Assembly: GCA_040753815.1 (NCBI GenBank)
Contig: JBFMDU010000005.1
Span: 85,350 to 149,349, forward strand
From: Chloroflexota bacterium
GTDB lineage: Bacteria; Chloroflexota; Dehalococcoidia; GIF9; JBFMDU01
Reading direction: 5' to 3'
Length of the DNA: 64,000 bases
The notes below the pieces were generated by a model that did not search any database, had not been told where the DNA came from, and saw only the letters and a list, made by a program, of their open reading frames with translations. Positions 35,183 through 48,364 of the stretch are shown piece by piece; position 1 is the stretch's first letter; every line of letters begins with the position of its first letter. The translations under genes were made by a program, and so were the position numbers.

Positions 35183-35671
35183 TTAGTTTCGCCTATTCCG
35201 AATAGTATCGGCCCAGCGCAGTAGCGGTACACCGGCGCCCCGGGACTCAGCGTAATGCGTCCCGAGATCATCTAGTTGGCCCGGTGATAACCGTTCGGTA
35301 AGTATGTTGAGACCGTCGCAGTTACTCACATGCACCAGCAGTGCCCTGGCCGCCTTAGACACCGCCTTCCTTTCTTCTCCAGAAAGCGTTGACTGGGACA
35401 GCAGTCTGGCCGCCGTCTTGGCAGTCTCGATGGCTCCATCATGTTCGCCTATGAGGGTGTCCACATAATCACCCAGAAATTCCCGCAGGGTCGGATAGAG
35501 GGATTCCTCTTCATAGCGAAAATGGGGGCCAACCAGCGTATCAATGTCGCCTAGAATTTTACGGGCTTTATCCAGGTCCCCGACCTCGGCGGCCCCGGCC
35601 AGATTCAAAAGGCCGTCACGAACCTTCCGGTGATCCTCCCGGAATTCGACGATTGGGTCAAGCTTTGCCAT
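35183..35671 (-). CDS. Hemerythrin-like (HHE) protein
   Basis: FREDHRKV, PHFRYEEESLYP, GEHD, VHVSNCDGL. Confidence 0.82.
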   Translation of the reverse strand: MAKLDPIVEFREDHRKVRDGLLNLAGAAEVGDLDKARKILGDIDTLVGPHFRYEEESLYPTLREFLGDYVDTLIGEHDGAIETAKTAARLLSQSTLSGEERKAVSKAARALLVHVSNCDGLNILTERLSPGQLDDLGTHYAESRGAGVPLLRWADTIRNRRN

Positions 35672-35683
35672 CTTCCTTCCTCC

Positions 35684-36925
35684 TTATTTCGTTTTCTTAA
35701 TTTTCACTATCCAGTCCTGCGGGCCTTTCTGCTCGTACTCCCACTGATAAGCGTCCTTATATTCGGCCTCAAACTGGTAGTGGAGCGGTTTGGGGTCGTG
35801 GTCGTTAATAATCCTCAACGTTTCGCCAGGCCTCAAGGCATCCCAGTTCTCAAATATCTTGTCATGCCGCAGGAAAGGCGGCAGGCTCCTCAAGTCCAGT
35901 GTAACCACCTTAGGTCCCTCCTCATGATGTTCTTTCCCCGGTGTAAAACAACAATATCCAATCCGATCGCACGCCTTCTTAATCTCTGCCCATTCTCCAT
36001 CGGACAGCACCTGAAGCGCTATCTGATAGAGGATGTTATCCTCCTTGAAAATATGACCCTCAAGCTCCTGAGTGAGGAATTCCCCGGCATCTATAACCCG
36101 TGTTTTGAATTCGCTGAATGGAGTATCCTCAGCGTTGTGGCTGGCCCCGTATAGTTCCTTTTTCTTCTGCCGCAGGTCCACATGCTCTGCTTTCATAATT
36201 TGCGGCGGCTCGACCACGTCGTGCTTCTCCAGCACCGGGAACAGTACCTCTTCCTCGCGCTGGTGATGACTTTCGGCTTCAACTAGGTGATGAGCGATGT
36301 CCTTCAGCCTTTCCAGATCACCGCCCAGGTCGGCAAGGTTGTCCTTATCCTTCAACCCCTCCACAATGGTCTTGAGCTCAGACAAATTGCGCAGGATGAC
36401 CTTATGCTCCTCCATAAAAGTATGGATCGGGTGCCCTGGCGGCGCTTCAAGTTTCTGGGCCACCAGGCTCTCCCTCATGATATCCAGGTGGACATCGCAC
36501 AGGCTTTTCCTGATATCCTCGTGAGAAACCCCTTCCCGGATTAACTCCTGCTCCAGCCGTCCCAGCGTCCCAGCGTCCACCGTTTCCAGCAACTTCCTGG
36601 CCTTGTTCTTAGCTTCCTGAGAGACCTGTCCCTCTTTCAACTCCTTAAGTAATTGCCTGAACTGCGCCTTCTTCTCGTCCTCCGGGCCGGTACCGGTTCG
36701 GACTACCTTCAAAATCCACTCGTCCGGACCCTCTTTCTCGTATGTTACACTGAATTCACCCCGGGCCTTGAGCATATAGACCAGCGGCACCGGATTAAAC
36801 TCCACGACAATTCTCAAGGTTTCGCCTTCAGCCAGTTCCTCGATGGCCGGGAAAATAACCTGTTCTCTCTGACCATGCTCCAGCTTTCTTACATCAACTG
36901 TTCTTGCCGTATTAGTCGTAGTCAT
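35684..36925 (-). CDS. DUF2249-DUF438-hemerythrin-DUF2249 protein
   Basis: N- and C-terminal LDLR/DVR...NDHDPKPL domains; CDVH; HPIHTFMEEH; HHQREEEVLFP; HIFKEDNILY. Confidence 0.85.
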   Translation of the reverse strand: MTTTNTARTVDVRKLEHGQREQVIFPAIEELAEGETLRIVVEFNPVPLVYMLKARGEFSVTYEKEGPDEWILKVVRTGTGPEDEKKAQFRQLLKELKEGQVSQEAKNKARKLLETVDAGTLGRLEQELIREGVSHEDIRKSLCDVHLDIMRESLVAQKLEAPPGHPIHTFMEEHKVILRNLSELKTIVEGLKDKDNLADLGGDLERLKDIAHHLVEAESHHQREEEVLFPVLEKHDVVEPPQIMKAEHVDLRQKKKELYGASHNAEDTPFSEFKTRVIDAGEFLTQELEGHIFKEDNILYQIALQVLSDGEWAEIKKACDRIGYCCFTPGKEHHEEGPKVVTLDLRSLPPFLRHDKIFENWDALRPGETLRIINDHDPKPLHYQFEAEYKDAYQWEYEQKGPQDWIVKIKKTK

Positions 36926-36985: not shown

Positions 36986-37001
36986 TACGACTATTGTCGT
37001 A
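36986..37001. promoter_or_regulatory. Crp/Fnr-type palindrome TACGAC-TATT-GTCGTA
   Basis: Perfect 6-bp arms about 60 bp upstream of the DUF438/hemerythrin gene; recurs across the island. Confidence 0.7.
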
Positions 37002-37198: not shown

Positions 37199-38308
37199 CT
37201 AGTGACCCATGACCGGTTTGCCACTGCTGTCCGGCGGCGCTTCGCGCGGGCCCTTGTAGATTTCAGGATTGTCCAGACCCGATACTTTAAGTATGCCGAG
37301 CGCCCCTTTATCCATGGCACGGGATATAGCGTGATCAACAAGAACGAAGTCCCCGGGCACTTCTAACTTCAAATCCACTACCACCGCACCACCCGGCGGC
37401 ACCAGTGTCGTTTGGATACCCTGCTGGGGTGAAGATATGAGGTCTCCCATGAGGTACACGCGGTCGAAGATTTCCCCGATGATATGAAAGGACGAAATCA
37501 GGTTAGGCCCACCGACTCCAAAATAGATGCGGATAGTCTCACCAACATTAGCTTTGAGGGCGTGATCCCCGGTCAATCCATGGAACCTTCCATTGAACAA
37601 GACGTAAGTCGGCTTCTCGTCCTTGACCGCCTCCGTATCGAAAATCTGATGCCCCTTGGTTCCGGCTGGCCACTTGGTGTAAAAATCTCCCTGCATCACA
37701 TAGAACTCTTTATCGACTGGAGGTAGTCCTCCCTTCGGCTCCACCAGTATCAGCCCGTATAGGCCGTTGGCAATGTGCCAGGCGACATTAGGGATAGCAC
37801 AATGGTATATGTAGAGCCCGGGGGAAAGGGCTTTGAATTCGAAGCTGGTTTCTTGCCCTGGTGGGGTTCTGGTTGCCACAGCACCACCGCCAGGACCGGT
37901 AACGGCGTGGAAATCAACATCGTGGTTCTGCGGGTTAGACGCTGCGTTCTTAAAGTTCACCTTGACTGTATCGCCTACCATAACACGGAAAAACGGCCCG
38001 GGAACCTGCCCGTTAAACGTCCAGTAGGTGTAGGTAGTGCCATCCTCTATCTCGGCGACGAGTTCTTTAGCTTCCAGGCTAATCTCAACCCTTGTCGGCG
38101 TGGTCCGTTTCAACGGCGGTGGAAGGTCAGTCACAGACCTTGAAATGTATGGTACGTCAACTTGCCTGGCTGGCCCGGGCTTCTCCGTTCTGGCCACAGT
38201 AATCGAAGCCGGCGAGAATAAGCCGCCCAGTAAAATGCCGGTAATTATGCCCACCAGGGCAACTGCAATTGCAGTATAAACAAGTCTTCTTCTTTCACTG
38301 ATCGCCAT
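37199..38308 (-). CDS. nirK: Copper-containing nitrite reductase (AniA-like), N-terminal membrane anchor
   Basis: WTFNGQVPGP, HDVDFHA, GLYIYHCA...WHIANGLYG, SSFHIIGE, LVDHAISR. Confidence 0.93.
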   Translation of the reverse strand: MAISERRRLVYTAIAVALVGIITGILLGGLFSPASITVARTEKPGPARQVDVPYISRSVTDLPPPLKRTTPTRVEISLEAKELVAEIEDGTTYTYWTFNGQVPGPFFRVMVGDTVKVNFKNAASNPQNHDVDFHAVTGPGGGAVATRTPPGQETSFEFKALSPGLYIYHCAIPNVAWHIANGLYGLILVEPKGGLPPVDKEFYVMQGDFYTKWPAGTKGHQIFDTEAVKDEKPTYVLFNGRFHGLTGDHALKANVGETIRIYFGVGGPNLISSFHIIGEIFDRVYLMGDLISSPQQGIQTTLVPPGGAVVVDLKLEVPGDFVLVDHAISRAMDKGALGILKVSGLDNPEIYKGPREAPPDSSGKPVMGH

Positions 38309-38318
38309 GTTTTCCTCC

Positions 38319-41174
38319 TTAAATGGCCGCCGAAAGCGCCCAGACGGCCGCCATAGTCATGATAAATATGAAAGTCCCTATGGGAAGAAAGGCTCTAAAA
38401 GCCGTTTCTCTATCCGGCAGGAGCCGCAATGCCAGCTTGTATGCCGCAAAGATACTGAACACGAACCCGACCGTGACCATGAGCATTTGCATGATGTATG
38501 TCTGGTCGGCGCTCATGAGCTGCTGGACAGTGATCCCTTCCGGGATGACGCGGTTGAAGGGGAAATCCTGGGCCAGTGCCCGAATAACATCAAACACCGC
38601 CCCCCACGTACGGAATACATGGTCAAGAATATCGGCAAGGAATTTCATCCCGGCCAGCGGTAGTAAAGCATAACCAAAGTGAATAAAGAATTCCTTTACT
38701 GTCTTGTTTTTCATTCCACTGAACAGTTTTGAAAGATAGCTGAACCCGAATCCCAAACCAAGAGTCGCTGATATGCCTCCCAGGTATAACGCAATCACGC
38801 TCACAACACGAGGCCAGTCGTTGGGAGGTTCGCCAGCAGGCAGGACAAGCTTCAACACCGACCTTAAAGGCGACATGTAAAGCACCAGCAGTAGCGAGAC
38901 AATGGTGACCAGTGACGTGATGATGAGCGAGGCTACCGATTCATCCAGCTTGGCCGTAGTCCTCCCCCATAGGTCCAGCCCTGGTTTCCGGAACCCTATT
39001 TTCAGATTATAGTTGGGACATGCCTTAATACACTCGGTGCAGAGGATGCAGTTCAGATTCCGATCAACGCGCTCAGCGAACGGAGAATAACCACAATTCC
39101 AACAGCGTCCGCTTTCTAAAACCGCCGCGGCGTCATCCAGTCCTTTTTCAACTTCCCGGAACGACGTCTGACGTACGTTTGCTTCGAGCAAAGGCATGAT
39201 TGTCCTGGCTTTGAACTCAGCCGCCATTGCTGTCCCAGCACCGTCGTAACTGGCTGAAGTCCTGCCTTTCCTCAGGTCCATCCCTCTTAGATACCGTTCA
39301 ATCGAAACCGCCGCCTCTCTCCCGTCAGATATCGCATGGACAACATCGGCCGGCCCTCTTACCGCATCACCCCCGGCGAAGACGCCCGGCATATCGGTTT
39401 GCATCGTCAGCATATCAACTGAGAGGTACCCCGGTTCAGTGTATTTAAGTTCCGTCGCCAACCCCCGACCGTCTACTGATTGCCTGATAGCAACAATAAC
39501 GTTATCAACCTCAATTGCAAAGTCAGACACACTAACTGGCGTGAGACGCCGCTGATCATCCGCTTCCGGCTCACCAGCTTTCACATTAATACACTCAATA
39601 CCAGTCACCCGATTGCCGTTCGATAGTATGTTAATCGGCGCCGCTAGGTAATAGAACTTAATCCCTTCTGCCTCGGCGGCCTGTATCTCAGAAGCCAGCG
39701 CAGACAAGTCTTCACGTGACTGGCGGCTTATTACCGCGACTTCACCCGCGCCAAGCCGCCGCGCAACCCGGGCGGAGTGAATCGCAGCGTTCCCACTGCC
39801 AATGATACCCACTCGTCTTCCAATCTCGATAGTTCCGTTTACATTGACATCCCGGAGGAAATCTAGAGCGTTAATAACACCGGTATTCTCCTCACCCGGA
39901 ATACCTGGCTTCTGGCTGACCCCAGCGCCGATCCCCACGAAAACGGCCCGGTAGCCCTGCTGGAATAACGCCCCGATATCTTTAACCGGGGAACCAGTCT
40001 TGATTTCCACCCCCAAGCGCTTGATGTATTTTATCTCTCCATCGAGGATGTTCTTGGGCAGTCGGTAGCCTGGTATGCCGTACCGGAGGAGACCACCGGC
40101 TTCCGGCGCGGCTTCGAAGACCGTGACCGGGTAGCCCCGCTTAACCAGGTCATAAGCGCAGGTTAGCCCCGCTGGCCCGGACCCGACGACGGCCACCCGG
40201 TCGGAATGCTTTGCTCTCACCGGTTTGACCTTCTCTTCCCCCATCGCTAGGAACTGGTCTGCCATGTAGCGCTTAATATCGCGGATGGTCACGTTCCCAT
40301 CAACCTTCGCCCTCTCACATCCGATTTCACAGGGATGAGTGCAGACTCGTCCCAGCGTGCCTACCAGGGCCGTGGTCTTACGATGAAGTTCCACACCCTC
40401 GCGGTACCTGCCCTGCGCCGCAAGCTGAATGTAGCCAGCGCTGTCCACACCGGCAGGGCATGTCGCCTGACATAAGGGATACCCTTTCGAATCGATGGTG
40501 AAATCGCAGTGCCGGAGCATCATCGGGCAACCATAAGCCTGCTCGCTGCCGTTTATGCAAGCCTTCGCCTTACACTTGCGGCAGACTATCTCGCGCTTCC
40601 TACGGACTTCGAACGGAGCGGCCATCGAACTCATGCCAATAAAGACGGTCAGCGGACAAAGGTATAAACAAAAGGTCCGCCTTTCAAAGAAGAGATTTAT
40701 CCAGACCGGCCCGAGTATCATTACCGTAATCAACCCGGCGGTCAAAGCCGGGCTATTAGAAATACCGTAGCCGGTATCAAGAAAAATGAAGACCACAAAG
40801 AATACGATGCCTATCCACAGGTTGCGCAGGCGCCGAGGGTACTTAAAGTTGAATCCCAGCCCCCATTTCCTCTTCCACCACAGGCTCAGCCTCTGAAACC
40901 ACTCGCCGGCAACTCCGAAGGGACACATTATGCACCAACCCCGACCCACCAAAATGAAGAGCACGATGAGGAGTCCCCACCACACCACCCAGGTAAAAAC
41001 GGTACCGAAGTTGAAGGCCGGGTTGGAAACCCCCCAGAAGAGGGAGGCCGCGGCGATGATAAAAACTAAAAACGCCGGCGCCACCAGCAGAAACTGGAAA
41101 TAGCGGCGGGTAATAAGAAACTTCAGGGCACGCGCTTCAAGCAGGTTGGTAAGAATAACCTGTAGTTTTTTCAT
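38319..41174 (-). CDS. NapH/MauN-like membrane polyferredoxin containing an inserted GltD-like FAD/[4Fe-4S] oxidoreductase module
   Basis: N-terminal TMs with GRGWCIMCP and RTFCLYLCP; CQATCPAG, GRVCTHPCEIGC, VGSGPAG, GLLRYGIPGYRL, GVFAGGD, RCWNCG; then NCILCTECIKACP and C-terminal TMs. Confidence 0.88.
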   Translation of the reverse strand: MKKLQVILTNLLEARALKFLITRRYFQFLLVAPAFLVFIIAAASLFWGVSNPAFNFGTVFTWVVWWGLLIVLFILVGRGWCIMCPFGVAGEWFQRLSLWWKRKWGLGFNFKYPRRLRNLWIGIVFFVVFIFLDTGYGISNSPALTAGLITVMILGPVWINLFFERRTFCLYLCPLTVFIGMSSMAAPFEVRRKREIVCRKCKAKACINGSEQAYGCPMMLRHCDFTIDSKGYPLCQATCPAGVDSAGYIQLAAQGRYREGVELHRKTTALVGTLGRVCTHPCEIGCERAKVDGNVTIRDIKRYMADQFLAMGEEKVKPVRAKHSDRVAVVGSGPAGLTCAYDLVKRGYPVTVFEAAPEAGGLLRYGIPGYRLPKNILDGEIKYIKRLGVEIKTGSPVKDIGALFQQGYRAVFVGIGAGVSQKPGIPGEENTGVINALDFLRDVNVNGTIEIGRRVGIIGSGNAAIHSARVARRLGAGEVAVISRQSREDLSALASEIQAAEAEGIKFYYLAAPINILSNGNRVTGIECINVKAGEPEADDQRRLTPVSVSDFAIEVDNVIVAIRQSVDGRGLATELKYTEPGYLSVDMLTMQTDMPGVFAGGDAVRGPADVVHAISDGREAAVSIERYLRGMDLRKGRTSASYDGAGTAMAAEFKARTIMPLLEANVRQTSFREVEKGLDDAAAVLESGRCWNCGYSPFAERVDRNLNCILCTECIKACPNYNLKIGFRKPGLDLWGRTTAKLDESVASLIITSLVTIVSLLLVLYMSPLRSVLKLVLPAGEPPNDWPRVVSVIALYLGGISATLGLGFGFSYLSKLFSGMKNKTVKEFFIHFGYALLPLAGMKFLADILDHVFRTWGAVFDVIRALAQDFPFNRVIPEGITVQQLMSADQTYIMQMLMVTVGFVFSIFAAYKLALRLLPDRETAFRAFLPIGTFIFIMTMAAVWALSAAI

Positions 41175-41749
41175 CTTATCCAGCGCCGCGCAACGGCAGT
41201 GAAACCGCCGAAAACGACGACAACCAGCGCCGCGCTGGCAAATGGCAGGTATTTAGTCATCCCACCACCGGCTTCCCCGATTATAAGATGCGCCTTCATG
41301 TAGGGATGGCCGATACCGCAAAACACCGTGCAGTACATCGCGTATGTCCCCTCGGAAATATCGGCCGGTATCGTGACGCGGCGCGTTATCTTCTCCCCTG
41401 GCGGCAGATCCATGTTGATACCCAGTTCATTAATCGCAAAACCGTGGGTGATATCCTCGCTCTGAAGCGTCAGCATAATATTTTCCCCACGGTTTACCTT
41501 GATGGCCCTGGGTTCAAATTCCCATTGCTGAGCCTTCAGTTCAAACTCCCTGACCCCATTAACCATCCTACCTTCCGATATGCTCACGGCGGCCACATTA
41601 TGGACGCCATACGCCATACCGAAGGTGATCAGGATGCCGATAACCGCGACTATAGCAGCAATAAGCGGCACTTTGTTGAAGACGCCGCTGCTGTTCGAAA
41701 CCATCTGTGGGTCAGCCCCGCTGTTGGTCATCTTTACAAATATCCACAT
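41171..41749 (-). CDS. Membrane-anchored CuA cupredoxin (Cox2/NosZ C-terminal-like)
   Basis: EDITHGF and CTVFCGIGHPYM (complete CuA ligand set); N- and C-terminal TM helices. Confidence 0.88.
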   Translation of the reverse strand: MWIFVKMTNSGADPQMVSNSSGVFNKVPLIAAIVAVIGILITFGMAYGVHNVAAVSISEGRMVNGVREFELKAQQWEFEPRAIKVNRGENIMLTLQSEDITHGFAINELGINMDLPPGEKITRRVTIPADISEGTYAMYCTVFCGIGHPYMKAHLIIGEAGGGMTKYLPFASAALVVVVFGGFTAVARRWIR

Positions 41750-41816: not shown

Positions 41817-41878
41817 TAGGACTTTTGTCGTAATTCTAAAACCTGGTGGCGCCGAAGCCTTTTGGGACAAAAGTCGTA
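41817..41878. promoter_or_regulatory. Two Crp/Fnr-type boxes in a divergent promoter
   Basis: TAGGAC-TTTT-GTCGTA (41817-41832) and TGGGAC-AAAA-GTCGTA (41863-41878). Confidence 0.65.
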
Positions 41879-44535: not shown

Positions 44536-45198
44536 ATGCCTCCAACAATTAATTTCTTAAAATCACTACCCTACTTCGCCGCCTTGCGGCCAGCCACACT
44601 AGACAACATTGCCAGGACGGCGACGGAGCTTTCCTTCGCCAGGGGCGAGGTCGTCATACTGGAGGGAGAGCCCTGCCGCGGCTTATACATCGTCAGGATG
44701 GGGCGAGTGCGCATCTTCAAAAGTTCGGCTGAGGGACGGGAGCAAGTGCTGTACATCGCTGGCCCGGGCGATACCTTTAACGACGTCCCGGTCTTCGATG
44801 ACGGCGCCAACCCGGCCAGCGCTTCGGCACTAGAACCAGCCACCATCTACCTCATTCCCAGGCAGACAATGACCTACCTGGCAACCGACAGCCAGACGGC
44901 CCAGGCAATTATCAAGGTCTTCGCCACCCGCCTCCGCCACCTGACTACGATAGCTGAAGATCTCTCTTTCCGCAGTGTCCCCAGCCGGCTGGCCAAGCTG
45001 CTACTAAAGCTGGCCGTGGTCGAAGGCGGCGAAGCGCCAATCCCACAATTAACCCAGGACGAGATGGCGGCCATGGTCGGCTCGGTCAGGGATGTCGTCG
45101 GTCGGTCGCTTAGAACCATGACAGGCATGGGAGTTATCGAAATAAAGGGGAAGCGCATTACTATTACCGATCCCGATAAGCTTAAGGACATAAGTTGA
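44536..45198 (+). CDS. Crp/Fnr-family regulator (no FNR Cys cluster; DNR/HcpR-like)
   Basis: cNMP-binding fold (GRVRIFKSSAEGREQ, GDTFNDV); HTH LTQDEMAAMVGSVRDVVGRSL. Confidence 0.92.
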   Translation: MPPTINFLKSLPYFAALRPATLDNIARTATELSFARGEVVILEGEPCRGLYIVRMGRVRIFKSSAEGREQVLYIAGPGDTFNDVPVFDDGANPASASALEPATIYLIPRQTMTYLATDSQTAQAIIKVFATRLRHLTTIAEDLSFRSVPSRLAKLLLKLAVVEGGEAPIPQLTQDEMAAMVGSVRDVVGRSLRTMTGMGVIEIKGKRITITDPDKLKDIS

Positions 45199-45201
45199 GT
45201 C

Positions 45202-45217
45202 TGCGACAAAAGTCGTA
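45202..45217. promoter_or_regulatory. Crp/Fnr-type box TGCGAC-AAAA-GTCGTA
   Basis: Upstream of the ferredoxin/NOR operon. Confidence 0.65.
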
Positions 45218-46221: not shown

Positions 46222-46644
46222 ATGGAAAAACACGAACGAGTCTGGCTGGGAATCCTGTGTGTCGTCTTTATCATCGTCAACGCCATCACCATCTCACCGC
46301 TGGTCCCCTGGCAGGAGTGGCAGGTCTGGTCAAAACCAGTCCCGGAAAAGATAATCCCGGTCGAGGTGGAAAATTACCGCTTCAAGCTCCCTCCACAGGG
46401 AATCGAGGCCAAAGCCAACCAGTACGTGGAGTTCGTCGCCACATCGAAGGACGTGACCTACGGTTTCGGGGTTTTCCGGCAGGATGGCTCCCTGGTTTTC
46501 CAGATGCAGGTCATACCCGGCCGTGAGAGCCGGCTTGCCTGGAAATTTGACGCCCCCGGCGTCTACGATGTCCGCTCCACCGAATACTCCGGGCCAAGAC
46601 ATCCGGAGATGTTCGTCAAGAACGCCATCCGGGTAACGGCATAG
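46222..46644 (+). CDS. Heme-copper oxidoreductase subunit II lacking CuA ligands
   Basis: One TM plus cupredoxin fold; DVTYGF (His->Tyr) and STEYSGPRHPEM (both Cys->Ser). Confidence 0.88.
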   Translation: MEKHERVWLGILCVVFIIVNAITISPLVPWQEWQVWSKPVPEKIIPVEVENYRFKLPPQGIEAKANQYVEFVATSKDVTYGFGVFRQDGSLVFQMQVIPGRESRLAWKFDAPGVYDVRSTEYSGPRHPEMFVKNAIRVTA

Positions 46645-46657
46645 AGGAGACACTGAA

Positions 46658-48364
46658 ATGCTGAAATTAGGCTGGCAAGAGAAATGGACACTAAGGTACG
46701 CAGTGGTCGCCCTCTTATTCTTAGCCCTGGCCGGTATCGAAGGCGTCATGATGCGTTCGCAATTAATATCGCCAACTTCACTGGAGAGCCTGGAAACGAC
46801 ACTGGCGGCACTCCGTGGCGGCAGTCAGTCGGGGCCGGCTGAGCTGTTTTACTCCGTCCTGACCGCCCACCCCATCGTCGGCATCTACGGCTTCGCCTAC
46901 ATGGCCGTCTTCGGCGCTTTTTACTTCCTGGTGCCATTCCTGCTGAACAAGCCAGTCCGCCACAAGCGCCTGGTTCCGGTCAATTTCTGGCTCCAGATTG
47001 CCGGTGTGCTGGTCTGCTGGGGAGCCGGTTTCTTCGCCCTGTTCAATGCCACCTACACCCTCTACTGGCCCTTGCCGGTAGCCTACGACCGGGTGCCGCT
47101 AATAGGCAGTATCGTCTTCGGCTTCGGCCTTGCCTTAATTGAAGCTAACGTCCTGCTCTTCGTTTTCAATGTTTTCAGCACCGTACTCAGCAAAAGCAAC
47201 CCGCATCCTTACAGCTTCCGCCAATTCCTTGCCTCGGCTTTCGGCATACCCCGCCTGTTAAAGCTGTTCGGCAGGAAACCGGCCAACGGCGGCGAGGTCA
47301 ACTATAACGACCTTCCTGTCTTCGTCGTCGCTGTCGGGCGCGGGTCTATTGATACCGTTATTAACGCCATCGTTCTGCTGACCGCCGGTGTGCTCATGCT
47401 GGTCTATGGCCTACCCGCCCTTATCCAGGGCATCATGCTCAACTCCGGCGCTGTGGACGCCCTCATTTATAAGAACTTCTTCTGGTGGGGGCTGGACATG
47501 ATTGCCGATGGCAACGTTCTCATGTACGCCGCCGGCACCTGGTACCTGTTGGTCCCTCTATTGGTGGGCCGCAAGCTCTACGGCGAATCCGTGGTAAGAA
47601 CCGTCATCCTGGCCGACCTGCTGGTGTCCATGGGCGTCTGGAGTCACCATCTGCTGGCCGACCAACCCCAACCCTTCGGCCTCCGCCTCATCTCCGGCCA
47701 GTTCATCACCTGGGGTGAGTTCTTCACCATGGGTCTGACCATGTTCGCCATCCTGATGACCATCTGGCTGGCCAGACCGGTCAAGTTCACCGCGCCGCTT
47801 AAGTTCGTCCTCGCCTCGGTCTTCGGATTTGCCGTCGGCGGTATCGCCGGCATCACCCAGGCCAACGTCGGCCTTAACGTCGTTCTCCACAACACCCAGT
47901 GGGTTATCGGCACCCACGGCCACATGATGCTGTTAGGAGGGCTAGCATCACTGCTGTTCGCTGTGATTTATGCCCTTATCCCGATGCTGACCAAAGCCGA
48001 AATCTGGAGCCAGAAGCTGGTCAGCGTCCACCTAGGGCTGTGGCTGCCCGGCGCCGTCCTCATGGCTGACTCCATGGGGCTGGCTGGCATCGAGGGCATG
48101 TTGAGGCGGACGCTCTACTCGGGCGGCGAGTACCAGTTGCACATGATTGTCGCTACTCTTGGCGGCATCCTAATGGCCGCTGGTTTTACCGTTTTCCTGG
48201 TCAACGTCATCAAGACGCTGGGGCTGAAGAATGTGCTCGGACTGGTCTTACCGGAACAGTGGCTGATGCCAAAGCCAGCCGTAGCGGCAGGCGTTATCCC
48301 GGCTACTGGATTGCCTGAACCAGCGCCGGTTCCTGTGACTGTAATCCAGAACATCCAAAGATAA
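46658..48364 (+). CDS. Heme-copper superfamily subunit I, gNOR-type nitric oxide reductase
   Basis: TAHP (low-spin His), WWGLDMIADGNVL in place of WxxGHPxVY, VWSHHL, THGHMM; about 13 TM helices. Confidence 0.8.
   Translation: MLKLGWQEKWTLRYAVVALLFLALAGIEGVMMRSQLISPTSLESLETTLAALRGGSQSGPAELFYSVLTAHPIVGIYGFAYMAVFGAFYFLVPFLLNKPVRHKRLVPVNFWLQIAGVLVCWGAGFFALFNATYTLYWPLPVAYDRVPLIGSIVFGFGLALIEANVLLFVFNVFSTVLSKSNPHPYSFRQFLASAFGIPRLLKLFGRKPANGGEVNYNDLPVFVVAVGRGSIDTVINAIVLLTAGVLMLVYGLPALIQGIMLNSGAVDALIYKNFFWWGLDMIADGNVLMYAAGTWYLLVPLLVGRKLYGESVVRTVILADLLVSMGVWSHHLLADQPQPFGLRLISGQFITWGEFFTMGLTMFAILMTIWLARPVKFTAPLKFVLASVFGFAVGGIAGITQANVGLNVVLHNTQWVIGTHGHMMLLGGLASLLFAVIYALIPMLTKAEIWSQKLVSVHLGLWLPGAVLMADSMGLAGIEGMLRRTLYSGGEYQLHMIVATLGGILMAAGFTVFLVNVIKTLGLKNVLGLVLPEQWLMPKPAVAAGVIPATGLPEPAPVPVTVIQNIQR

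Follow-up and report, generated by a model that had tools for sequence, protein, structure and literature searches.

The usual view of NapH proper is that it acts as a quinol dehydrogenase, and NapGH of E. coli and Wolinella serves the periplasmic nitrate reductase. NapH is annotated as a quinol dehydrogenase ferredoxin subunit (PMC4683180, PMC8238504), and NapH-like proteins have been described as modular transmembrane electron-transfer units, including units directed toward nitrite reductases (Meheust et al. 2021, PMC8238504). NosR and PceC/RdhC are NapH-like systems with flavinylated FMN-binding heads (PMC8238504, PMC5928378). In Methanoperedens, the 'NapH' protein MPEBLZ_02040 has '5 additional TM helices' for a total of nine (Arshad et al. 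2015, PMC4683180). The operon that encodes it, NarGHJ-Orf7-HCOII-NapH(9 TM)-HCOII, is highly transcribed (PMC4683180), and the nitrate reductase is still termed non-canonical (PMC13079737).

The window, a stretch of 64,000 nucleotides from a Chloroflexota bacterium, encodes a 951 aa protein of this general kind in a single open reading frame (38319-41174, minus strand). The features of the locus are as follows:

41817..41832, no strand: near-palindrome TAGGACTTTTGTCGTA, which departs from TACGA-N6-TCGTA at one position
41171..41749, minus strand: CuA-type cupredoxin gene, 192 aa (Pfam Cupredoxin_1 and COX2; NCBIfam CoxB and NosZ C-terminal matches)
40509..41174, minus strand: scaffold N-terminal part, aa 1-222 (Fer4_5 matches; AF2 helices)
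39075..40508, minus strand: inserted GltD/NfnB-type cassette, aa 223-700 (Fer4_20 and Pyr_redox_2)
39720..39728, minus strand: S483-R484-Q485, end of beta-2 of the NAD(P)H Rossmann fold (alignment: YRR in relatives)
38319..39074, minus strand: scaffold C-terminal part, aa 701-951 and stop (weak Fer4 matches; AF2 helices)
37199..38308, minus strand: copper nitrite reductase gene nirK, 369 aa (TIGR02376)

The sequence-only reading had described the gene as coupled between a CuA gene and nirK, and the coordinates agree. The CuA gene (41171-41749) and the 951 aa gene share 4 bp (ATGA) at the start of the latter, and nirK (37199-38308) starts 10 bp past its stop codon. NirK scores 356 bits on TIGR02376 (cut-off 296), is N-terminally membrane-anchored, and is the terminal enzyme of the three-gene operon. 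The box precedes the start codon of the CuA gene by ~70 bp and is a candidate Crp/Fnr-type operator for the operon; a Crp/Fnr regulator gene is present in the window at 44536-45198. The three matches to TACGA-N6-TCGTA in the window are all intergenic, and their excess over the 1.03 expected is statistically weak, with at least three matches in 7 of 100 shuffles.

Outside of the cassette, the protein may be considered as a membrane scaffold of nine helices. The AF2 model places four TM helices in the N-terminal part (26-47, 56-83, 120-136 and 142-162; pLDDT around 90) and five in the C-terminal part (743-774, 787-819, 826-870, 889-918 and 922-950; pLDDT 86-98). Pfam Fer4_5 matched aa 59-106 with 28 bits in a scan of the full-length protein and two stretches with 36.5 bits when the N-terminal part was scanned by itself; the C-terminal TM part matched no Pfam family, with Fer4 only weakly matched. 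An exhaustive HMMER search with the C-terminal piece identified 265 relatives, and those that were checked have an N-terminal Fer4_5. Two Cys-Pro motifs of the N-terminal part, C81-x2-C84-P and C169-x3-C173-P, lie at the cytoplasmic membrane face. The first ferredoxin half-motif follows (C198-x2-C201-x4-C206-x9-C216-P) and the second (C709-x2-C712-x2-C715-x3-C719-P, in letters C709-ILC712-TEC715-IKAC719P) lies beyond the cassette. The motifs named earlier, CRKCKAKAC...GCP among them, are confirmed in the sequence.

In an alignment of 76 sequences over both scaffold parts, C81, C84, P85, C169, C173, P174, W62, W65 and W80 are identical in every one of the 76 scaffold-bearing sequences. Polar and aromatic residues near the periplasmic face are also conserved (N55, W62, W65, W66, D133, T145, H852 and Q896), as are the periplasmic loops LPAGxPPNDWPR and DHVFRTWGA...DFPxNR of the C-terminal part. 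No conserved His pair for haem is present in the scaffold. By the predicted topology, every Fe-S and FAD site is on the cytoplasmic side, and CuA is on the other.

The scaffold shares with NapH a set of four TM helices that carry Cys-Pro motifs at their cytoplasmic ends, and a pair of [4Fe-4S] motifs after them. While NapH has two Cx3CP motifs, the first membrane-face motif of the window protein is CxxCP and only the second is Cx3CP; its first ferredoxin motif is Cx2Cx4Cx9CP rather than CxxCxxCxxxCP. An additional 5-TM domain, a CuA partner and an inserted flavoprotein also set it apart. The earlier label of 'NapH-like' holds at the level of the superfamily but not of the family: un-inserted relatives score 28-44 bits on NapH profiles against cut-offs of 213 (TIGR02163) and 234 (NF007013), and NapH models are absent among the best 25 NCBIfam matches listed for the 951 aa protein. 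Neither NapG nor NapA is encoded in the operon, where the neighbours are CuA and NirK.

The protein fits an uncurated group of CuA-associated 9-TM NapH-like polyferredoxins, both in its order of a Fer4_5 4-TM domain, a dicluster ferredoxin and a 5-TM domain and in its adjacent CuA-type cupredoxin with the 4-bp overlap. As judged from its described architecture, MPEBLZ_02040 is likewise NapH-like, with nine TM helices, of which five are additional and C-terminal, and with CuA-type HCO II neighbours, and its context (Tat NarG, NarH, NarJ and the haem b protein Orf7/EB_dh) is that of two fused relatives, P0004 and P0008. MPEBLZ_02040 has no flavin cassette, whereas the window protein carries one of ~475 aa in its ferredoxin loop and has NirK as its end enzyme. 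With NosR and PceC/RdhC, the window protein shares the PF12801 membrane module, CxxxCP motifs, a cytoplasmic dicluster ferredoxin, and a modular link of the cell interior or membrane to extracytoplasmic reductases. It differs from them in its five extra TM helices, its built-in cytoplasmic donor module, and an outward head that is a separate CuA cupredoxin instead of a flavinylated FMN_bind domain. Domain scans of the protein and its neighbours identified neither ApbE nor FMN_bind in the operon, and the NosR model matched a relative only at E 0.0026 over 32 residues; an assignment to NosR/NirI/PceC was rejected.

The sequence-only reading had recognised a GltD/NfnB-type unit from its FAD GxGPAG, GSGNAA and Fe-S cysteine motifs, and domain searches confirm it. 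Fer4_20 matched aa 233-311 (E 8e-14, 51.8 bits, cut-off 25.8) and Pyr_redox_2 matched aa 326-618 (E 1.5e-24, 87.4 bits, cut-off 26.1), while NCBIfam PRK12771 covered aa 228-721 with 426 bits, under its cut-off of 516. The FAD site GSGPAG is at aa 331-336 and the second Rossmann motif for NAD(P)H, GSGNAA, is at aa 459-464. Eight Fe-S ligands (C235, C239, C278, C282, C286, E287, C691 and C694) are invariant in 13 of 13 fused proteins. They would hold two [4Fe-4S] clusters, including a Cys3-Glu set, and the GltD motif suggests which ligands belong to which cluster.

The same cassette is found within HdrA-like Chloroflexi proteins (56% identity over aa 223-693), and 40 such HdrA-embedded cassettes share C278, C282, C286, E287, C691 and C694 without exception. 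Identity to NfnB, StnC, the NfnABC large subunit and GltD is 35-40% with a Foldseek probability of 1.00 (PDB: 5jca_L, 4ylf_B, 8oh5_C, 9bov_A, 9n5u_A, 2vdc_G; DPD was also matched), and the cassette has the same Fe-S ligand set and the same FAD and NAD(P)H Rossmann folds. In solved complexes, these homologous modules are NAD(P)H-FAD-2x[4Fe-4S] entry modules. Unlike them, the cassette is inserted in a membrane protein, has a privately diverged NAD(P)H site, and is circularly permuted: the N-terminal helix and RCxxCG motif of GltD are located at the C-terminal end of the cassette. As a result, both cassette ends meet at one cluster. The glutamate synthase small subunit proper was rejected as an identity (TIGR01316/01317/01318 = 292/177/250 bits against cut-offs of 472/448/483), and no GltB or NfnA partner is encoded near the 951 aa gene.

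Un-inserted relatives, which lack the cassette, are about 475-510 aa in length and fix the insertion point to the residue. Where the un-inserted P0139 reads CPMMIFPYAIDRNTHCILCTEC, its fused sister P0011 reads CPMMTHPYDF, the cassette, and then IDRNTYCTLCTEC. Similarly, the un-inserted L031 from a Chloroflexi MAG reads YGCPMFEYQGRGMDKNNDCILCTEC and the window protein reads YGCPMMLRH, 478 aa, and then VDRNLNCILCTEC. These alignments define the cassette as a domain insertion in the loop that joins the first ferredoxin half-motif of the scaffold to the second, as the sequence-only reading had proposed. A motif that is contiguous in GltD is split by the insertion at a structurally sensible place. 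On the tree of the scaffold, at least four gains or losses of the cassette are needed.

The linkage of the scaffold with CuA and with GltD-type flavoproteins is recurrent. The CuA gene is translationally coupled to the scaffold in 12 loci (the window and 11 others); the 4-bp overlap is seen both among fused proteins (groups A and C) and among un-inserted ones of Chloroflexi and Methylomirabilota-type lineages. In 8 proteins CuA is N-terminally fused to the scaffold, and such coupling or fusion occurs across phyla. One of the eight, P0196, also has the cassette and therefore contains CuA, scaffold and cassette in one chain. In Actinomycetes, 4 of 5 loci have a separate GltD-type flavoprotein gene (Fer4x2 + Fer4_20 + Pyr_redox_2 + flavodoxin) immediately after the gene of the un-inserted scaffold. 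Three independent gene arrangements tie the parts together: CuA coupled or fused, the flavoprotein adjacent, and the single chain of P0196. The inserted, adjacent and fused forms lend comparative support to the earlier proposal that the scaffold works between a cytoplasmic GltD-type flavoprotein and a CuA cupredoxin.

The cupredoxin presents its copper domain outward between N-terminal and C-terminal membrane anchors, and both hydrophobic anchors are conserved across the 12 partner cupredoxins. The CuA ligands H102, C140, C144 and H148 are invariant in 12 of 12, with Met or Leu at M151. CuA is proposed to be the acceptor from the scaffold and the donor to NirK. Subgroup B is an exception in that its coupled upstream partner is YtkA-like and not CuA.

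The link to NirK holds in the window and in L031, where an orthologous CuA-scaffold-NirK operon encodes a NirK with 67% identity to that of the window. Since the L031 operon has no cassette, the cassette is not required for this system. The link does not hold as a general rule: other fused relatives adjoin a Tat-exported periplasmic Mo-enzyme of the type II DMSO-reductase family, which comes with a haem b subunit, or extra cupredoxins. NirK is one among several end partners. The fused architecture itself is rare, not common, with about 15 clusters among 5.8 billion proteins and an occurrence in 1 of 401 genomes of the class.

Taken together, the three genes are read as a chain that exports electrons from the cytoplasm to the periplasm, where nitrite is reduced, at a probability of roughly 55%. 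The cofactor content, donor, direction, transmembrane step and CuA-to-NirK transfer of this chain are those that we infer. The cassette FAD would oxidise a cytoplasmic hydride donor, NAD(P)H by family, though the site of the window protein has diverged. Electrons would pass through the two [4Fe-4S] clusters of the cassette, one of which would sit at the neck where both ends meet, and then through the two [4Fe-4S] clusters of the scaffold to a four-cysteine site (C81, C84, C169 and C173) at the cytoplasmic face on TM2 and TM4. The membrane may be crossed via a bound quinone or, alternatively, by a relay with the invariant W62, W65, W66 and W80 and the conserved periplasm-side D133, T145, H852 and Q896. 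The doubly anchored CuA cupredoxin would then be reduced and would in turn reduce NirK. The direction is suggested by thermodynamics: NAD(P)H lies at about -320 mV, transfer to CuA and nitrite would be downhill, a membrane potential that is positive outside would assist it, and the opposite transfer would be doubly uphill. Against such a chain, there is no evident cofactor in the membrane to bridge the distance from Fe-S to CuA across the bilayer.

A broader form of this proposal is offered tentatively, in which the scaffold would define a family of haem-free, quinone-independent transmembrane exporters, a prokaryotic Fe-S/copper counterpart of NOX/STEAP. In the fused form, NAD(P)H, FAD, four [4Fe-4S] clusters and the Cys4 centre would follow one another in one polypeptide, and the crossing would possibly be made by the invariant Trp ladder of TM2 to the tethered CuA. 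The cupredoxin would serve interchangeable periplasmic reductases, NirK here and a Nar-type Mo-enzyme elsewhere. The likeness to eukaryotic and bacterial exporters, NOX/FRE and STEAP as well as MsrQ-like proteins with a fused FNR domain (PMC8238504), is one of analogy, namely a cytoplasmic NAD(P)H-flavin domain on a membrane conduit whose acceptor is extracytoplasmic; there is no homology, and where those systems have two b haems in the membrane, the window protein has Fe-S inside, CuA outside, and no haem motif.

The scaffold might instead be a NapH-like quinol:CuA oxidoreductase, so that menaquinol and not NAD(P)H directly feeds CuA and NirK while the cytoplasmic Fe-S clusters and the cassette reduce the quinone pool, as an alternative NAD(P)H:quinone reductase attached to the quinol oxidase, or tune or balance redox. 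Distant homology to NapH with its annotated quinol dehydrogenase role is consistent with this, and the periplasmic-face residues listed above may resemble a quinol site. The genome encodes NuoH (complex I), a MenA-like prenyltransferase (95 bits, cut-off 102) and Ccm genes, which would allow electrons to take a conventional route through quinone. Nonetheless, MqnA/MqnD were not found in the genome and MenA is under its cut-off, so quinone synthesis is not established, and the repeated recruitment of NAD(P)H-type flavoproteins in inserted, adjacent and fused forms would go unexplained unless the module reduces quinone. A quinone-fed scaffold is considered unlikely.

It is improbable that the scaffold has a non-respiratory role, either reducing Cu(II)/Fe(III) or loading or repairing the copper of CuA and NirK. 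The gene is flanked by two copper proteins, the superfamily includes the cupric reductase CcoG, and YtkA/CtaK acts in CuA assembly. The YtkA-like partner of subgroup B, with thioredoxin, DsbD_TM and ArsP as neighbours, points the same way, as does one Methylomirabilota-type lineage in which translational coupling joins the module to FeoA-FeoB, with an MtrA/MtrB-like pair behind them. However, CuA centres are electron-transfer sites and not chaperones, and all 12 partners retain the full set of CuA ligands; other loci contain respiratory-type enzymes (the Tat Mo-enzyme with haem b, or NirK). The hallmarks of CcoG/FixG are also absent, with no match to the periplasmic Ig-like FixG_C domain and Fer4_18 only at E 0.14, and this identity was rejected.

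The nucleotide site of the cassette deserves separate consideration. The observation that the usual YRR reads SRQ was correct: S483-R484-Q485 of the window protein aligns with YRR in 12 of 12 relatives and in the solved relative 9bov_A. SRQ, which may reflect either an altered donor specificity or decay, is part of a much wider private divergence: 53 of 62 private changes at conserved positions are in the cassette, 18 of them substitutions in the NAD(P)H Rossmann fold (aa 441-505), including YRR to SRQ and GGGNAA to GSGNAA. With a branch of about 0.9 against a median of 0.13 (about 7x, where the scaffold branch is about 2x its median), the window cassette is the most diverged of all; this, like the orthologous L031 operon without a cassette, counts against the export chain. 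NAD(P)H use by the window protein is uncertain given this divergence and the 18 changes in the NAD(P)H fold.

The cassette could then be in decay, a spacer with Fe-S and FAD that no longer binds NAD(P)H, and the protein would act as in L031 with ferredoxin or another donor and with the direction of flow unchanged. The long cassette branch, the concentration of changes in the nucleotide-binding fold, the repeated gains or losses and the L031 operon are in keeping with decay. Yet the frame is open through all 478 residues, as verified by translation, and the eight Fe-S ligands, the FAD GxGxxG and the second GxGxxA are all retained. R484 and R487 are still near the 2'-phosphate position, and AF2 folds the NAD(P)H domain at a pLDDT of about 72-90. 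Decay is given little weight. That the 951 aa frame is an assembly or annotation artefact of two or three falsely joined genes is excluded for practical purposes by about 15 independently assembled full-length homologues (NCBI, ENA, JGI, Logan) with both of the same junctions, by the lack of a composition break, and by boundaries that fall at the sensible split of the GltD motif.

Returning to the export chain, we know of no identified donors to NirK and periplasmic Nar-type enzymes in Chloroflexi, Methylomirabilota-type bacteria or Methanoperedens. Genome papers have mentioned a 9-TM 'NapH-like' protein next to CuA partners since 2015, but to our knowledge it has never been characterised. The fused form points to the type of cytoplasmic partner that the scaffold has, a GltD/NfnB-type flavoprotein. 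With a donor module, a conduit, CuA and NirK, the three genes are a self-contained system that can be directly expressed and assayed, and so the long-standing question of the membrane crossing of electrons in NapH/NosR-type proteins and of the role of quinone becomes testable. The window and L031 operons, with and without the cassette, together with the circular permutation, also show cleanly how a domain can be inserted into a redox protein. If the transfer is quinone-independent, no energy would be conserved by it; its probable role would be that of an electron sink or of nitrite/NO handling rather than a coupling site, and such a nitrite/NO-producing sink would bear on the part of fermentative Chloroflexi in nitrogen loss. 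Should the scaffold prove to be a counterpart of NOX/STEAP, CuA would gain a third setting in biology, and electrons a new route across the membrane.

The fusion is encoded by a single ORF of 951 aa on the minus strand (38319–41174). The motifs quoted in the sequence-only reading (the Cys half-motifs, GSGPAG, GSGNAA and SRQ) are all present exactly as described.

Features of the fusion protein (window 38319–41174, minus strand; residue numbers are those of the protein)
aa 59–106, Fer4_5 domain (Pfam)
C198xxC201xxxxC206...C216P, first ferredoxin half-motif (fusion sequence)
aa 233–311, Fer4_20 domain (Pfam)
aa 326–618, Pyr_redox_2 domain (Pfam)
aa 331–336, GSGPAG (fusion sequence)
aa 459–464, GSGNAA (fusion sequence)
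S483-R484-Q485, SRQ (fusion sequence)
C709xxC712xxC715xxxC719P, second ferredoxin half-motif (fusion sequence)

The top NCBIfam model is PRK12771 (aa 228–721), which scores under its cut-off, and every glutamate-synthase equivalog in the same scan falls far under its own cut-off. The proposed coupling of the gene between its two neighbors was also confirmed. On the 5' side, the gene of a 192-aa CuA-type cupredoxin ends with a stop codon that overlaps the fusion ATG (ATGA), and on the 3' side, a gap of 10 bp separates the fusion from a bona fide NirK (356 bits vs. a cut-off of 296).

With the last 266 residues of the fusion as query, an exhaustive HMMER search identified 265 relatives. Many of these are 475–510 aa in length and have an N-terminal Fer4_5 module and a C-terminal membrane domain as in the fusion. 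In the un-inserted relatives, only ~13 residues separate the two half-motifs of the ferredoxin, which bears out the claim that a GltD-type unit splits the ferredoxin loop of a NapH-like protein. The un-inserted P0139 and the fused P0011, which are near-sisters, differ by the cassette at one loop position. The L031 locus from a Chloroflexi MAG encodes CuA, an un-inserted scaffold and NirK, and is thus the operon of the window minus the cassette; the scaffolds are 56–60% identical on either side of the insertion and the NirK proteins are 67% identical. These comparisons establish the cassette as a true domain insertion.

The cassette (aa 223–700) matches the solved NfnABC, StnC, NfnB, GltD and DPD structures in sequence and fold, and is 56% identical to a cassette within HdrA-like Chloroflexi proteins of ~1110 aa. 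The contiguous GltD motif C-G-x-P-x-C-x3-C-P, as seen in 2vdc_G, is split: the cassette starts with K-G-Y-P-L-C235-x3-C239-P and ends with the usual GltD N-terminal segment, finishing R-C691-x2-C694-G-Y-S-P-F. Since the motif is divided between the opening and closing ends, the cassette is circularly permuted. Its ends are predicted to come together at a single [4Fe-4S] cluster beside the host ferredoxin. With eight ligands counted in the cassette and eight in the host dicluster domain, four [4Fe-4S] clusters are predicted; two Cys-Pro motifs supply four more cysteines. The HdrA-embedded cassettes (~475 aa; P0017–P0120 from Chloroflexi/Dehalococcoidia, e.g. P0018 aa 282–753) have the same boundaries as the cassette of the fusion (ID-x-x-GYPPC ... 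RCLNCA) and immediately follow a CxxCxxCxxxCP motif. In this respect the cassette acts like a portable module that can be inserted into loops of the ferredoxin type.

An AlphaFold2 model of the fusion was calculated from a composite alignment of 87 rows (pLDDT = 82), in contrast to a 13-sequence alignment that gave only pLDDT = 50. The HdrA-like rows were trimmed to the cassette because their full-length flanks misaligned onto the transmembrane parts. The model has nine transmembrane helices, and the membrane parts exceed a pLDDT of 90. From the modeled helices and the positive-inside rule, the ferredoxin and the cassette are predicted to be cytoplasmic, as are the N-terminus and the two Cys-Pro motifs. 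Outside would be the CuA domain, together with conserved loops at 775–786 and 856–888. Across 76 scaffold-bearing sequences, C81, C84, P85, C169, C173, P174, W62, W65 and W80 are invariant, and conservation is 92% or higher at N55, D133, T145, H852 and Q896, which all lie close to the outer face. No conserved haem-binding His pair was found across the same sequences. Sequence and profile searches of the PDB with the scaffold matched no solved structure, and a Foldseek search with the full model returned only cassette homologs and was uninformative on the scaffold fold. The C-terminal five-helix domain (aa 745–951) has no Pfam family; one relative, P0130, has a sub-threshold match to Yip1 (PF04893, 24.4 bits vs. 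a cut-off of 28.6).

A 4-bp overlap joins a cupredoxin with a CuA motif to the scaffold in groups A and C of the fused form, and also in un-inserted forms. All 12 aligned CuA partners retain H102, C140, C144 and H148 together with N- and C-terminal anchors, with Met or Leu at position 151. In eight proteins an N-terminal CuA domain is fused onto the scaffold, and one of these, P0196, carries CuA, scaffold and cassette in a single chain. In four of five Actinomycete loci, the un-inserted scaffold gene is followed by one for a protein with Fer4x2, Fer4_20, Pyr_redox_2 and flavodoxin domains. The terminal partner is variable. NirK is found in the window and L031, a plastocyanin-type protein occurs elsewhere, and fused relatives have a Tat-exported set of type II DMSO-reductase-family alpha, beta, NarJ and haem-b gamma proteins; group C loci have additional cupredoxins. 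At the P0281 locus (L013/L014), FeoA-FeoB, a cupredoxin, the scaffold and an unknown 228-aa protein are translationally coupled, followed by an MtrA-like multihaem cytochrome and an MtrB/PioB porin, which suggests that this module has been put to an iron-linked use, either in reducing ferric iron so that it can be taken up or in transferring electrons extracellularly.

The fused architecture is rare, with only ~15 clusters in three subgroups among 5.8 billion proteins. Among 401 genomes of its class, the fused form is present in one, that of the window, and distant un-inserted scaffolds are present in 12 others, none from the same order. The un-inserted family is wider (199 clusters at E <= 1e-5), with labels that include Methylomirabilota/Rokubacteria, Myxococcales, Chloroflexi and Actinomycetes. 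Fused proteins are interleaved with un-inserted ones in the scaffold tree, where well-supported branches require at least four gains or losses; in the cassette tree, a single clade contains the HdrA-embedded cassettes, and all of the scaffold-borne cassettes lie outside of it. A single ancient insertion that was later lost precisely on several occasions would be compatible with both trees. A Dehalococcoidia MAG (UBA2162; L032, L033) has both forms: a fused copy of 950 aa, accompanied by CuA and a Tat Mo-enzyme, and a 474-aa un-inserted paralog, accompanied by a cupredoxin and a plastocyanin-type protein. P0172 (1085 aa), another relative of the scaffold, contains six Cys-Pro motifs, lacks a flavin motif and may represent a scaffold in tandem or doubled form.

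Taken together, the insertion, partners, topology and conservation are most economically read as those of an electron exporter. Electrons would pass from a cytoplasmic reductant to FAD, the four [4Fe-4S] clusters, the Cys4 site (C81, C84, C169, C173), a membrane step, CuA and finally NirK. An outward direction is inferred because flow from NAD(P)H to CuA/nitrite is downhill and aided by an outside-positive potential. On the same thermodynamic grounds, reverse flow from the periplasm to NAD(P)+ would be doubly uphill and was rejected; flavin-based bifurcation as in NfnB was set aside since the operon encodes neither a second exit path nor an NfnA-like partner. Of the conduit to CuA and NirK first proposed from the sequence, the evidence supports the logic of a conduit and the partnership with CuA, but the NirK link is local.

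A first rival is a quinol:CuA oxidoreductase containing its own NAD(P)H:quinone reductase, where a quinone-mediated membrane step would be electroneutral. The assembly (~2 Mb, 90% complete) includes NuoH and a MenA-like gene just below cut-off; MqnA/D were not found in it. CcmF- and CcmC-like cytochrome c maturation genes (G000:C5:74745–78392) lie ~7–10 kb upstream of the window, on the contig shared with the nitrite/NO island. A conventional quinone and cytochrome route is possible in the organism and, given the presence of these genes, the quinone bypass is best treated as hypothetical. A second rival is a metal reductase or copper maturation system: a Methylomirabilota-type lineage has the scaffold with FeoAB and an MtrA/MtrB-like pair, and subgroup B has a YtkA-like protein in place of CuA, with thioredoxin and DsbD neighbors. 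The third is a decaying cassette. The window cassette has a branch of ~0.9 substitutions per site (median 0.13, cassette tree) and the scaffold part one of 0.31 (median 0.16, scaffold tree). At positions where 11 or more of 12 relatives carry the same residue, the fusion has 62 private deviations vs. 5–29 in the other aligned proteins; 53 are in the cassette, and 18 fall within aa 441–505, the NAD(P)H Rossmann fold. These include GGGNAA to GSGNAA, D466H, MPA to LSA, and the substitution of the usual YRR by SRQ that had been noted earlier. The Fe-S ligands and FAD motif are intact. This divergence would fit either a changed donor or relaxed constraint.

Other features of the region may be considered alongside the exporter. 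The NirK proteins of the window (37199–38308) and L031 (L031:2160–3254) share ...(N/K)GLYGLILVEP, with Leu at the position usually taken in copper nitrite reductases by the axial Met of the type 1 copper; being common to fused and cassette-less operons, this Leu goes with the CuA-scaffold system and not the cassette. Directly downstream of nirK are a DUF2249-DUF438-hemerythrin-DUF2249 protein with a weak YtfE-like match (35684–36925) and a second hemerythrin (35183–35671), as is typical of proteins that accompany NO or iron-sulfur repair. At 46222–48364, a haem-copper oxidase subunit I (568 aa, COX1 213 bits) is beside a 140-aa subunit-II-like protein with a bare COX2 match (E = 0.007), and the stand-alone CuA (41171–41749) could also serve this oxidase. 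Three intergenic TACGA-N6-TCGTA-like palindromes were identified, a count that is weak alone (1.03 expected; 7 of 100 shuffles reach three).

Palindromes in the window
36986–37001, no mismatches, ahead of the hemerythrin/DUF2249 gene
41817–41832, one mismatch, ahead of the CuA operon
45202–45217, one mismatch, just after the Crp/Fnr gene

Meheust et al. (2021, PMC8238504) defined 'NapH-like' PF12801 proteins as modular units for electron transfer across the membrane; those units differ in having flavinylated FMN-binding heads, and the paper does not mention cupredoxins or GltD modules. Arshad et al. (2015, PMC4683180) reported a Methanoperedens operon, NarG-NarH-NarJ-Orf7-HCO II-NapH-HCO II, in which NapH has nine transmembrane helices (five of them extra) and every gene is highly transcribed, and proposed that the products form an unusual nitrate-reducing complex. 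A 2026 paper describes this complex as still uncharacterized, with co-localized CO dehydrogenases. No description of the flavin-inserted scaffold was found in the literature searched, and a paper on Chloroflexi NirK (PMC8756737) does not mention the fused architecture. This nine-helix kind of membrane electron-transfer protein is already known though uncharacterized, and the flavin-inserted form is the new part: the fusion is a variant with a built-in, circularly permuted flavin donor module. Since a direct wire would run down the membrane potential and not add to it, such an exporter suggests a role as an electron sink or in detoxification.
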